A DNA stretch of 32,000 nucleotides, taken from Azotosporobacter soli (lineage in GTDB: Bacteria > Bacillota > Negativicutes > SG130). Each line of letters starts with the position of its first letter. Positions within the stretch are counted from its first letter, which is position 1. Position numbers and translations under genes: made by a program. The stretch is from assembly GCF_030542965.1 (NCBI RefSeq), contig NZ_JAUAOA010000002.1, positions 349,744 to 381,743 of the forward strand, read 5' to 3'. Under the pieces are notes generated by a model. That model searched no databases and was not told where the DNA came from. It saw only the letters and a list, made by a program, of their open reading frames with translations. This document shows positions 649-8,513 of the stretch, piece by piece.

Positions 649-692
649 CCAATCCGTCCTTCCTTGCCGCAAAAATATTTTTTCAAACACCA

Positions 693-815
693 AGATCACA
701 AAGAAACAGCAACCGTTAGATCCCCTCTGTCGTCCTAGGAGGCTGAAACCGTCCGCATAAACTCTTTAGTCCTTCTTTTTGAACTTCGCGTCTTTGTGGT
801 TTAAAAATCACTCCC
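693..815. repeat. Degenerate third copy of the intergenic hairpin element (see 6696-6793 and 7673-7772)
   Basis: CACAAAGA (697-704) pairs with TCTTTGTG (791-798), extendable with wobbles. The right end CTTTGTGGTTTAAAAATCACTCCC aligns with CTTCGTGTTAAAACATCCCC and CTTCGTGTTGAAAATCCCG of the other two copies. The interior is not conserved. Confidence 0.3.
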
Positions 816-867
816 ATATAAAAAACGCAAAGGATACAGAATAGATTCTGCACGACCTTTGCGTTTT
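816..867 (-). terminator. Rho-independent terminator after the lptF/G-family gene
   Basis: On the minus strand, AAAACGCAAAGG (867-856) pairs with CCTTTGCGTTTT (833-822). An inner CAGAAT/ATTCTG stem sits in the loop, and a run of 6 U follows (820-825 on plus is AAAAAA). It lies 27 nt after the stop at 894. Confidence 0.6.
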
Positions 868-5693: not shown

Positions 5694-6662
5694 TTACACC
5701 ACTCCTTGTCTAAGTAAATCCGTCAAGTGCAAGAGGCCGATCGCCTTGCCGTCCTGGTCCACCACCGGCAGCACCGTGATCGGGCGCGGCTGGTTCTTTT
5801 CCATGATATGAAGCGCCTGCGCCGCCAGTTTTTCCTGACTGATCGTCTTCGGCGTCTTCGTCATCAGCGTTGTGACGTTTTCATCGAGGAAACCGTGTCC
5901 TTTTTCCAAACCGCGCCGTATATCGCCGTCGGTGATCAGGCCCAACAAACGTCCCGTTTCGTCAACGACCGAGGTCGCGCCGAGTCCTTTGCCGGTTATG
6001 ACGAACAGCGCTTCCTTCACCGTCTTGTCCTGCGTAATCAATGGATTGCTCTCACCGCCATGCATCACGTTTTCCACGGTGAGCAGCAGTTTGCGTCCGA
6101 GTGCACCGCCAGGATGAAATAGGGCAAAATCCTGCGACGTGAATTTTCGCTCCGAAAGCAGCACTACCGCGAGCGCGTCTCCCATCGCAAGCGTCGCGGT
6201 CGTGCTGCTGGTCGGAGCCAGTCCGAGCGGACAGGCTTCTTTTTCGATCGCCACTTCCAGTACGATGTCGGCATTGCGCCCCATCGTCGAGTCCAGCCTG
6301 CCGCAGATCACGATGATCTTTGCACCGATCCGGCGCAAAGCCGGGAAAATACTGACGACTTCCTGCGTCTCGCCGCTGTAGGAGATTGCCAGTACGACAT
6401 CTTCGCTGGTCACCATGCCCAAATCGCCGTGAATCCCTTCCGCCGGATGGAGAAAAAAGGACGGCGTTCCGGTACTGGCCAGGGTTGCGGCAATCTTCTT
6501 GCCGATATGGCCGGACTTTCCCATCCCGGTGACGACGACGCGCCCGTTGCAGGCAAGCATCATCTTGACCGCCTCACTGAACTGCCCGTTCAGCGTGGGG
6601 ATCAGGTCCAAGATCGCCTTCGCTTCCATTTCCAATACGTTCCTCGCCTGTTCCAGTATCAT
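5694..6662 (-). CDS. kdsD: Arabinose-5-phosphate isomerase KdsD (SIS + tandem CBS domains)
   Basis: SIS motif VVVTGMGKSGHIGKKIAATLASTGTPSFFLHPAEGIHGDLG, with C-terminal CBS pair. The ORF track extends to 6704, but ATG at 6662 (MILEQARN...) has GGAGG (6676-6672) 9 nt upstream. Confidence 0.9.
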   Translation of the reverse strand: MILEQARNVLEMEAKAILDLIPTLNGQFSEAVKMMLACNGRVVVTGMGKSGHIGKKIAATLASTGTPSFFLHPAEGIHGDLGMVTSEDVVLAISYSGETQEVVSIFPALRRIGAKIIVICGRLDSTMGRNADIVLEVAIEKEACPLGLAPTSSTTATLAMGDALAVVLLSERKFTSQDFALFHPGGALGRKLLLTVENVMHGGESNPLITQDKTVKEALFVITGKGLGATSVVDETGRLLGLITDGDIRRGLEKGHGFLDENVTTLMTKTPKTISQEKLAAQALHIMEKNQPRPITVLPVVDQDGKAIGLLHLTDLLRQGVV

Positions 6663-6695
6663 TAGGAAAAACCTCCTTCTCAATTGTGTGTCAGG

Positions 6696-6793
6696 TTTCA
6701 ACACGAAGGCGCGAAAAATTGAAAGACACGAAGAAATTTAGATTTTAAAATTCCTTCCGCTCTTTCTTTTTTCTTCCTTTCTTCGTGTTAAAA
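6696..6793. repeat. About 100-nt imperfect hairpin element, copy A (kdsA-kdsD gap)
   Basis: AACACGAAG (6700-6708) pairs with CTTCGTGTT (6781-6789). Internal purine-rich left arm segments GAAAAA and GAAAGA pair with TTTTTC and TCTTTC on the right arm. It begins about 11 nt after the kdsA TAG stop. Confidence 0.7.
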
Positions 6794-6804
6794 CATCCCC
6801 ATCC

Positions 6805-7629
6805 CTATTTATGCTTGCGCGCAACGGCGTCGATAGCCTGGACATCTTTAAGCAGTTCTTCCAGTTGCTCGATATAGAGCATGTTCGGACCGTCAGACAA
6901 GGCCTCCGGCGGATTGTCGTGCACTTCGGTAAAGAGCACATCGATGCCCGTAGCGACCGCAGCCCTCGTTAGATAGGGAACGAATTCGCGCTGACCGCTC
7001 GAGGTGGTTCCTGCGCCGCCGGGTAGCTGCACGCAATGCGTCGCGTCAAAAACCACCGGATAACCCAAACCACGCATGATAGCCAGCGAGCGCATGTCGG
7101 TGACCAGGTTGTTATAGCCAAAGCTCGCACCGCGTTCGGTCAGGAGAATGTTTTCATTGCCCGCTTCGCGGATCTTGTCCACGACATTTTTCATATCCCA
7201 CGGTGCCAGGAACTGACCCTTTTTCACATTGACGACCTTGCCTGTCAGCGCTGCCTGATGGACCAAATCGGTTTGACGGCAGAGAAAAGCCGGAATTTGC
7301 AAAATATCAAGCACTTCTTTTGCCGCGTCAATCTGCGTCACTTCATGAATGTCGCTGACGATCGGCACCTGAAGTTCCTGCTTAATCGCCGCCAAAATAC
7401 GCAGCCCTTCTTCCAGGCCCGGTCCGCGAAAAGATTGGTACGAGGATCGGTTCGCTTTATCAAAGGAGGCTTTGAATATATAAGGCACGCCCAATTTAGC
7501 GGCGATCGCCTTGATTTCCCGGCCAATGCGCAGTGTGCGTTCCATGCCTTCAATCACGCAAGGTCCGGCGATCAGCGCAATCGGATTCTTGCCGCCGACG
7601 GTAATCGGTCCAATATTTACAGTATTCAT
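6805..7629 (-). CDS. kdsA: 3-deoxy-8-phosphooctulonate synthase KdsA
   Basis: 274 aa with [21 protein letters not shown] and [13 protein letters not shown] motifs typical of KdsA. Confidence 0.93.
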
Positions 7630-7672
7630 TGCGACACTTCCTTTTTCCTGTAATTTACTAAGTCAAAGCGGA

Positions 7673-7772
7673 TTCAACACGAAGAATCGAAAAACGAAAG
7701 AGGAAAAGATTTTATTCGTATAAAAAAGAACTTCTTCCTTTCTTTATTTTCTCTTCCCTTCTTCGTGTTGAA
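7673..7772. repeat. About 100-nt imperfect hairpin element, copy B (kdsB-kdsA gap)
   Basis: TTCAACACGAAG (7673-7684) is a perfect 12-bp inverted repeat with CTTCGTGTTGAA (7761-7772). The purine-rich left arm and pyrimidine-rich right arm match copy A. It begins about 12 nt after the kdsB TAG stop. Confidence 0.75.
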
Positions 7773-7784
7773 AATCCCGTCATG

Positions 7785-8513
7785 CTATCGATTATCCTGC
7801 AGCAATGCATTTACCGCCGCCAGGTCTTCCGGCGTATCGACGCCGATGAATTTTGCCTCGGTCGTCAGCACTTTGATGCGGTAGCCGTTCTCGAGCGCGC
7901 GCAATTGTTCGAGCGATTCGGTCTGTTCGAGCGGCGTCGGCGGCAGTGCAGCATAGCGCAGTAGAAATTCGCGCCGGTACGCATAGACGCCGACGTGTTT
8001 ATAAACAGGTTGCCCTGTCTTGTTCCGCGGGTACGGCAGTACCGAGCGGGAAAAGTACAGAGCGTAGTCATTCTGATCGGTAACGACTTTTACCGCATTC
8101 GGATTATCATATTCGTCTTCCGCCATCCGAGTCTTCATCGTTGCCATATTCAATTGCGGTTCCTTATGAAACGCGTCAGCCAACGCGTCAATAATCTCCG
8201 GCGCCAATAAAGGTTCATCGCCCTGAACATTAATCACGATATCAATGTCGCTGCGTCCTGCCAGCACTTCGGCCAAGCGGTCCGTACCGGTCGGATGATC
8301 GGGCGCAGTCATCACGACTCGTCCGCCAAACTTTTTTACCGCCGCTTCCACCAACGGATGATCGGTCGCGACCAGCACTTCATCCGGCGTATCTGCCAAA
8401 GAAGCTCGCTCGTAGACGTGTTGAATCATCGGTTTGCCGGCGATGTCCGCCAGCGGTTTTCCCGGCAAGCGCGTCGATGCGTAGCGCGCCGGAATCACGC
8501 AAAGAATTTTCAT
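7785..8513 (-). CDS. kdsB: 3-deoxy-manno-octulosonate cytidylyltransferase (CMP-Kdo synthetase) KdsB
   Basis: N-terminus MKILCVIPARYASTRLPGKPL and NVQGDEPL motif. It is 242 aa. Confidence 0.93.
   Translation of the reverse strand: MKILCVIPARYASTRLPGKPLADIAGKPMIQHVYERASLADTPDEVLVATDHPLVEAAVKKFGGRVVMTAPDHPTGTDRLAEVLAGRSDIDIVINVQGDEPLLAPEIIDALADAFHKEPQLNMATMKTRMAEDEYDNPNAVKVVTDQNDYALYFSRSVLPYPRNKTGQPVYKHVGVYAYRREFLLRYAALPPTPLEQTESLEQLRALENGYRIKVLTTEAKFIGVDTPEDLAAVNALLQDNR

Follow-up and report, generated by a model that had tools for sequence, protein, structure and literature searches.

The hairpins in the gaps of the kds operon of Azotosporobacter soli are, with near certainty, ordinary members of the dominant interspersed repeat family of this genome, and they are probably gene-less, REPIN/MITE-like foldback copies (REP, repetitive extragenic palindrome; REPIN, REP doublet forming a hairpin; MITE, miniature inverted-repeat transposable element) that are tied to a GxxExxY nuclease and carried on the kds transcript. 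The window, by which is meant the whole stretch of 32,000 nucleotides that was analyzed, corresponds to G000:C12:349744-381743, where G000 is the 3.78-Mb draft genome of 40 contigs and C12 is the contig concerned. This reading draws on computed observations, namely family membership, genomic distribution, identity of the arms, co-occurrence of gene and repeat, and a repeat type that follows the type of the nuclease cassette. A functional tie between the repeats and the GxxExxY nuclease is quite likely on these grounds; any specific mechanism, such as cleavage of the arm ends with subsequent copying or conversion, is doubtful. The window features to which the text refers are as follows.

6694..6801, minus strand: copy A, a gene-less foldback element in the kdsA-kdsD gap (C12:356444-356531 in the genome list), with outer GGGGATGTTTT on the gene strand.
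7668..7781, minus strand: copy B, a gene-less foldback element in the kdsB-kdsA gap (C12:357420-357511 in the genome list), with outer CGGG/CCGC pairing.
7785..8513, minus strand: kdsB (CTP_transf_3, by Pfam), upstream of copy B.
6805..7629, minus strand: kdsA (Kdo-8-phosphate synthase, by Pfam), between copies A and B.
5694..6663, minus strand: kdsD (SIS and CBS domains, by Pfam, 5694-6663/6704).
684..815, strand unassigned: a third, degenerate element, with left units ACACCAAG and ATCACAAAG and right half-site CTTTGTGGTTTAAAAATCACTCCC.

The genes around the kds gaps are all encoded on the minus strand, inside a long lipopolysaccharide/outer-membrane gene cluster, and on this gene strand each copy is preceded by a TAG stop codon (6805-6807 for copy A and 7785-7787 for copy B) and then by GGGGATGTTTT or CGGGATTTTC, respectively. 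Both copies are hairpins of about 100 nt, in which a terminal clamp encloses a 5' arm rich in purines and a 3' arm rich in pyrimidines. The clamp comprises 9 bp in copy A (AACACGAAG at 6700-6708 / CTTCGTGTT at 6781-6789) and 12 bp in copy B (TTCAACACGAAG at 7673-7684 / CTTCGTGTTGAA at 7761-7772), and the RNA of the gene strand folds at -39.5 kcal/mol (z -4.5) in copy A and at -36.3 kcal/mol (z -2.5) in copy B. The shared architecture of the two hairpins, first proposed in an earlier note on this DNA, is real by its clamps, its folds, and its exact recurrence at 61 genomic loci. Neither copy contains an open reading frame, and the loops consist of a few tens of bases. The likely ATG of kdsD, at 6663 after GAAGGAGG, lies about 20 nt downstream of copy A.

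Pairs of ACACGAAG and CTTCGTGT spaced 40-250 nt apart account for these 61 exact loci in G000, and about 70 loci are obtained when up to one mismatch per side is allowed and the purine/pyrimidine asymmetry of the arms is demanded, so that the search for further genomic copies proposed in the earlier note gave a positive result. Among inverted 8-mers paired at a distance of 30-160 nt across the whole genome, ACACGAAG ranks first by a wide margin, with 68 occurrences compared with at most 22 for A-runs, which together with the 61 exact loci is well above what chance would give. The true copies are intergenic and reside in 41 tandem, 26 convergent, and 3 divergent gaps, compared with 1874, 398, and 398 such gaps genome-wide, which is a clear bias toward the 3' ends of genes. 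In each arm, an outer GGGGA..TTTT segment is combined with the terminus (A)ACACGAAG and with additional 8-nt units that end in GAAG. The family has two subfamilies: about 40 copies possess an additional G+C-rich side hairpin (GGGCCGAT..ATCGGCCC), and the remaining copies, including those in the kds gaps, have the outer segment, the clamp, and the GAAG units in common, with interiors that vary from copy to copy. With the clamp stripped, the interiors of 18 of 29 copies of this second group still fold better than their shuffles at z < -2. These elements are REP-like in being short extragenic palindromes of many copies, whose inverted doublets form long hairpins, and the REP/MITE-like origin that was one option of the earlier note is supported by the genome-wide copies together with the turnover in a relative described below. 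The GGGAT..TTT sequence that had been observed at both kds copies is indeed present there, but it is merely the outer arm segment. The spacing of 11-12 nt from the stop codon, which the earlier note gives for both kds copies, is not a rule, because the distances within the family range from 16 to 436 nt.

G000 was searched for long elements with the clamp at both ends, and a single locus qualified. This locus, C12:269065-269603, lies about 80 kb upstream of the window; its clamp pair encloses a small gene (C12:269120-269536), which is the sole match to PF13366 (PDDEXK_3) in a profile search of G000 and whose product scores 133 bits against the NCBIfam model TIGR04256 "GxxExxY protein". Other wide clamp pairs were rejected as long elements, since they are ordinary genes bracketed by two separate elements. 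On the gene strand, the cassette consists of GGGGAACCTTTT, AACACGAAG, AGGGGAAG, a short G+C hairpin, the gene, a second hairpin, and inverted units ending in CTTCGTGTTGAAAC. The arms of the cassette, which read GGGGAACCTTTTAACACGAAGAGGGGAAG, are the same as those of copies A and B (GGGGA..TTTTAACACGAAG together with 8-nt units that end in GAAG). Copies A and B also have the arm composition of the hairpin-armed GxxExxY cassettes as a class, for which no printed description was found within the reach of the literature searches: their AACACGAAG termini fit AAC(C)RCNRAG and their units end in GAAG. They are gene-less derivatives.

An alignment of 16 Negativicutes homologues revealed that E28, H30, G34-P35-G36, E39, Y42, E43, D78, E88, K90, Q102, and Y106 are invariant. 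Judged at the level of sequence, these residues represent an E...D...ExK core, as in PD-(D/E)XK enzymes, together with a QxxxY motif, and the catalytic motifs of the protein are computed to be intact. The AlphaFold (AF2) model of the protein has a mean predicted local distance difference test (pLDDT) score of 90, and its best structural matches in the PDB are Cas4 SSO0001 (E 9e-4, template-modelling (TM) score 0.53-0.56 on the query) and lambda-exonuclease-like enzymes; a sequence search of the PDB with the same protein matched no solved structure. The protein is thus predicted, from its model, to be a mini PD-(D/E)XK nuclease resembling Cas4, RecB, and lambda exonuclease. Cas4 and lambda exonuclease act on DNA ends. 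The PDDEXK_3 family was of unknown function in the 2012 survey of the PD-(D/E)XK superfamily (PMC3424549). The literature on Negativicutes REPs and on GxxExxY/PDDEXK_3 was also searched, and no description of an association between this gene and repeats was found.

The association of gene and repeat extends well beyond one genome. Among 201 sampled Negativicutes genomes, in which repeat richness was assessed by the counts of two clamp patterns, a strong PF13366 match is present in 19, exactly one in each. Repeat-rich genomes make up 17 of these 19, compared with 5 of the 182 gene-negative genomes; because related genomes are not independent samples, counts are reported here instead of a probability. 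The two gene-positive genomes that are not repeat-rich are G033 and G055, and the flanking units of G033 fall outside both counted patterns. Of the five gene-negative genomes rich in repeats, two are incomplete and one was searched minus 8 kb. The flanks of the gene were inspected in 18 of the 19 gene-positive genomes (all but G055), and arrays of 8-10-nt units, inverted on both sides of the gene, are found in 17 of these 18; G033 is counted among the 17 by eye and unscored, with units unlike the others, and the locus of G121 is cut, so that a unit array is seen downstream of the gene only. The unit itself varies by genome (CGAAG, CACAAAG, C(A/G)CAGAG, and others). Gene and repeats are also present or missing together among close relatives: within one genus, G121 has both and G043, G074, and G116 have neither, and within one family, G078 and G090 have both and G051 has neither.

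Among species-representative genomes, 568 relatives of the protein, spread over many phyla, were confirmed in one scan, with the best match in a Pelosinus genome. An exact inverted match of at least 10 nt flanks the gene in 59 of 65 complete loci, compared with 13 of 65 displaced controls, and the terminus motif AAC(C/A)RC[ACG]RAG is inverted on both sides of the gene at 40 of 68 loci and at none of the controls. The AACACGAAG sequence of the window fits this motif.

The sister species G001, which is the only other genome of the genus, has about 92% DNA identity with G000 and is syntenic with C12 over 400 kb. The single GxxExxY proteins of the two species are 51% identical, compared with 97% for KdsA, and their cassettes (G000:C12:269065-269603 and G001:C1:1226684-1227678) reside in neighboring gaps, one on each side of a conserved gene. 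The arms of the G001 cassette are of the CCACAAAG type, with GCAGATA..TATCTGC side hairpins. The repeat populations differ in the same direction: CCACAAAG...CTTTGTGG pairs give 24 matches (about 21 loci) in G001 and none in G000, and ACACGAAG gives 20 matches (about 17 loci) in G001 compared with 61 loci in G000. Cassette type and repeat population thus change together, partly at the same gaps. Of 19 G000 elements on C12, 6 are conserved in G001, 9 lie in gaps that contain an element of another type there, 3 are absent, and 1 lies in a region that differs, so that the comparison of orthologous gaps suggested in the earlier note yields both presence/absence differences and turnover. The two kds copies illustrate this: copy B is conserved in G001 at C1:1303566-1303659 (with no compensated, 2 half-compensated, and 3 broken pairs), and the kdsA-kdsD gap of copy A contains in G001 a longer element, of about 170 nt and of the CCACAAAG type, instead.

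Several further observations were made at the gaps of the sister species. Where one of the two genomes has its GxxExxY gene, the corresponding gap of the other contains a gene-less element or a different cassette. In the gap of the G000 cassette, G001 carries a small GIY-YIG (Ssn-like) gene (G001:C1:1225535-1226012; L035:15535-16012) adjoined by GTCATTGCGAG...GCAATC hairpin repeats, so that two small-nuclease cassettes occupy one gap in two species. At G001:C1:1194042-1194167, the orthologue of G000:C12:231244-231360, the heptamer CATGCCT, which lies within a conserved element, is present in about five tandem copies, compared with one in G000.

The third element of the window, described in the earlier note as a degenerate copy, does exist and spans 684-815. 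The sequence at its right end, CTTTGTGGTTTAAAAATCACTCCC, qualifies as a good half-site of the CCACAAAG type known from the sister species; its interior is not palindromic and folds no better than shuffles (z -1.0 and +0.55), which marks it as a degenerate relic. The G:C to A:T difference in its clamp had been read as a compensatory change, and this reading is not supported, because both arms are inverted copies of one CACAAAG unit, which belongs to a sister subfamily with about 21 loci in G001. The orthologous region of G001 differs altogether, over a stretch of 1.9 kb. Adjoining the third element, a terminator-like hairpin is found at window positions 824-865, with stems AACGCAAAGG / CCTTTGCGTT and a T-run after them; the stems match the terminus motif AAC(C)RCNRAG of the cassette class, which may be a coincidence or may represent a minimal element.

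A composite element of 170-210 bp is also present in G000, at C12:188700-188960 and in about 20 further full copies (e.g., C4:5476-5695), in which a ACACGAAG hairpin lies between separate outer inverted ends, GAGACTGTCGACAA... / ...TTGTCTACACTCTG. The composite sits in intrinsic terminators, and the whole terminator stem-loop, of variable length, is duplicated on either side of it. A flanking direct repeat of at least 8 nt is found in 13 of 20 copies, compared with 1 of 20 in the control, and a T-run comes after the right terminator copy in 16 of 20 but after the left one in none of the 20. The stems of the duplicated terminators are often identical and their loops different, and at the empty site G001 has just one hairpin. 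No full-length parent of the outer ends was found in the G000 draft assembly. The composite and the GxxExxY cassette have only the clamp in common.

The most immediate alternative for the two window copies is that they serve the kds operon as dedicated cis-regulatory RNA hairpins, whether as mRNA stabilizers, RNase processing sites, or determinants of differential expression, and are kept by selection. In favor of this, both copies are internal to the operon and follow stop codons closely, copy B is conserved in G001, two other Negativicutes families have unit-built hairpins in these two kds gaps as well, and the transcribed strand folds better in 18 of 21 copies in tandem gaps. The strand bias in folding was rejected as evidence for selection on RNA, as strand-biased mutation predicts the same: G·U wobble favors the strand richer in G and T, and mutation that enriches these bases on the coding or leading strand could produce the bias without selection. 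Several other relatives have short kds gaps without an element, copy A is replaced by another repeat type in G001, and about 70 copies lie elsewhere in the genome; the kds gaps look like cases of repeated occupation of any available gap rather than sites of a conserved regulator. In one genome of another Negativicutes family (L014 of G003), the 564-nt kdsB-kdsA gap is filled by four tandem unit-built hairpins of about 125 nt, with ACCACGAAG and TACGCAAAG units. The covariation that the earlier note proposed to test is weak among the orthologues in G001: of the base pairs predicted for the six elements conserved in both species, 186 are the same, 36 are broken, and compensation is full in 3 and half in 12. 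As 40 of 281 unpaired positions changed in the same pairs, the stems change about as fast as the loops, with the termini constant, a pattern in the sequences that fits end recognition better than a conserved RNA structure. With an intrinsic terminator defined as a G+C-rich stem followed by a T-run, a scan of the kds gaps found no terminator-like site within copy A or copy B, whose 3' flank is A-rich (GTTAAAA). The elements have no Rfam match at the gathering score, and relaxing the threshold brought up only miRNA-like hairpin matches of about 20 bits that are attributed to chance, in agreement with the earlier note, which recognized no named RNA family in them. Dedicated regulation of the kds genes is therefore highly improbable as the explanation of the hairpins.

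Two other explanations accept the dispersed family and dispute the part played by the nuclease. The repeats may be generic REP/MITE-like selfish palindromes, moved by some other enzyme or by none, with the GxxExxY gene merely sitting in hairpin loops. In a second repeat-rich genus (g7), five genomes each contain three unit types alongside one nuclease gene, and the arm type of the gene is always among the abundant types and never the sole type; a one-to-one matching of nuclease and unit type was rejected for g7 on this account. Repeat-rich genomes without the gene exist, and the most recently expanded form of the ACACGAAG hairpin is the composite, with its own unrelated outer ends. G000 also has 18 intact IS200-like Y1 transposase genes: its 19 PF01797 matches comprise 12 and 6 multi-copy IS200-like genes and one broken gene. 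The two IS200-like families have identical scores within their 12 and 6 Y1 copies, many of which lie at contig ends (e.g., G000:C1:439300-439950; L001-L008). The ends of these IS200-like elements, however, are unrelated to the clamp, and no single-copy Y1 gene of the RAYT (REP-associated tyrosine transposase) type was found in G000. Palindromes indifferent to the nuclease also do not account for the co-occurrence in 17 of 19 compared with 5 of 182 genomes, for an arm type that follows the cassette in G001, or for the same framing of the gene in many phyla, and this explanation is improbable. In the other explanation, the repeats would be recognition sites of a site-specific, probably single-strand nuclease with a cellular role in DNA uptake, recombination, or defense, as in Ssn/NTS systems, and would not be copied by the nuclease. 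Such a host system would suit a GxxExxY gene that is single-copy and syntenic within families, and a predicted fold closest to Cas4 and lambda exonuclease; the layout, too, is that described for Ssn, with a nuclease gene flanked by its own many-copy hairpin repeat (PMC11893778). The predicted fold (PD-(D/E)XK and not GIY-YIG) and the motif differ from those of Ssn, and a host system by itself leaves the same-gap replacement of repeat types in G001 unexplained, which makes this second explanation quite improbable.

The reading preferred here, in which the kds hairpins are gene-less foldback copies tied to the GxxExxY nuclease, must be set against several observations that weigh on the other side. 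Five repeat-rich Negativicutes genomes have no detected gene, and the related genomes of the survey are, as stated, non-independent samples. G001 keeps about 17 ACACGAAG loci without a matching cassette, and the three unit types per gene in g7 speak against one-to-one specificity. No clear or fixed target-site duplication was found for the plain elements; an empty site in G001 for C12:171011 (TTTTA|ACAC) is clean, with an ambiguous duplication. The neighbors of the gene are kept within a family, so that the gene looks vertically inherited, and as a syntenic gene it looks resident and not hopping. Movement, cutting, or binding of the repeats by the nuclease is in addition inferred and not observed.

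If the nuclease does act on the repeats, it may recognize the arm termini, probably as hairpin or single-stranded DNA, and cutting at the termini followed by repair or copying would spread, convert, or maintain the repeats. The elements of the kds operon would then be passengers that are transcribed with kdsB-kdsA-kdsD and fold as RNA hairpins, with at most incidental, REP-like effects on the mRNA. It is conceivable, though unlikely, that GxxExxY proteins and unit-array hairpins form a distinct partnership in which a change of the resident cassette drives genome-wide replacement of the repeats, partly in situ, within the same gaps, through copying or conversion that the nuclease triggers; the kds copies would be snapshots of this process, with B retained and A exchanged in G001.

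The finding probably matters little to the kds operon itself, and for annotation it advises caution, as operon-gap hairpins of this kind should not be read as dedicated riboregulators. If the link between gene and repeat is functional, PF13366, an abundant family of "unknown function" in many phyla, would gain a role, and there would be an explanation for many intergenic hairpin repeats that form a large class in diderm Firmicutes and elsewhere. Such a link would also represent a third independently evolved design of a small nuclease with its own dispersed hairpin, after RAYT/REP and Ssn/NTS, and a possible source of new sequence- or structure-specific nucleases.

By analogy, the pairing of repeat and GxxExxY nuclease resembles both REP/RAYT and NTS/Ssn, and membership in either system fails because the defining protein differs. 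The elements share with the REP/REPIN-RAYT systems that they are short palindromes outside genes, numbering in the tens to hundreds and located at 3' gene ends and between the genes of operons. Also shared are a vertically inherited, single-copy gene with its own type of repeat on both sides (as in REPtrons) and species-specific repeat families that turn over at conserved gaps. In contrast to these systems, the protein is predicted to be a PD-(D/E)XK mini-nuclease, where RAYT is an HUH Y1 transposase, the arms consist of serial 8-10-nt units without a GTAG-headed REP, and the gene lies in the loop of a foldback. Membership among the RAYTs was rejected, as only multi-copy IS200-like Y1 genes are present in G000 and their conserved ends are unlike the clamp.

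MITEs and their parent insertion sequences share with the present family the terminal inverted repeats, the variable interior, the excess of gene-less copies over the gene-carrying one, and presence/absence differences between close species. They differ in that the gene-carrying form here has no known transposase domain and its gene is single and syntenic; the arms are shared with a cassette of predicted PD-(D/E)XK fold and not with a transposase-coding element.

The Ssn proteins are GIY-YIG nucleases of cd10448 with NTS/SRM repeats, for which single-strand DNA cleavage and an effect on transformation were shown experimentally (Chenal et al. 2025, PMC11893778). They have in common with the present system a small nuclease gene framed by hairpin repeats that are also dispersed in many copies, a presence of the gene that tracks repeat abundance across phyla, and homologues whose specificities diverge (PMC11893778). 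The predicted fold, the catalytic motif, and the repeat sequence differ, and membership was rejected as the gene belongs to PF13366 and not to GIY-YIG. The clamp and units described here are also unlike the Ssn-like GTCATTGCGAG...GCAATC repeats beside the GIY-YIG gene of G001, which, rather than the published SRM motif, are the basis of this last comparison.

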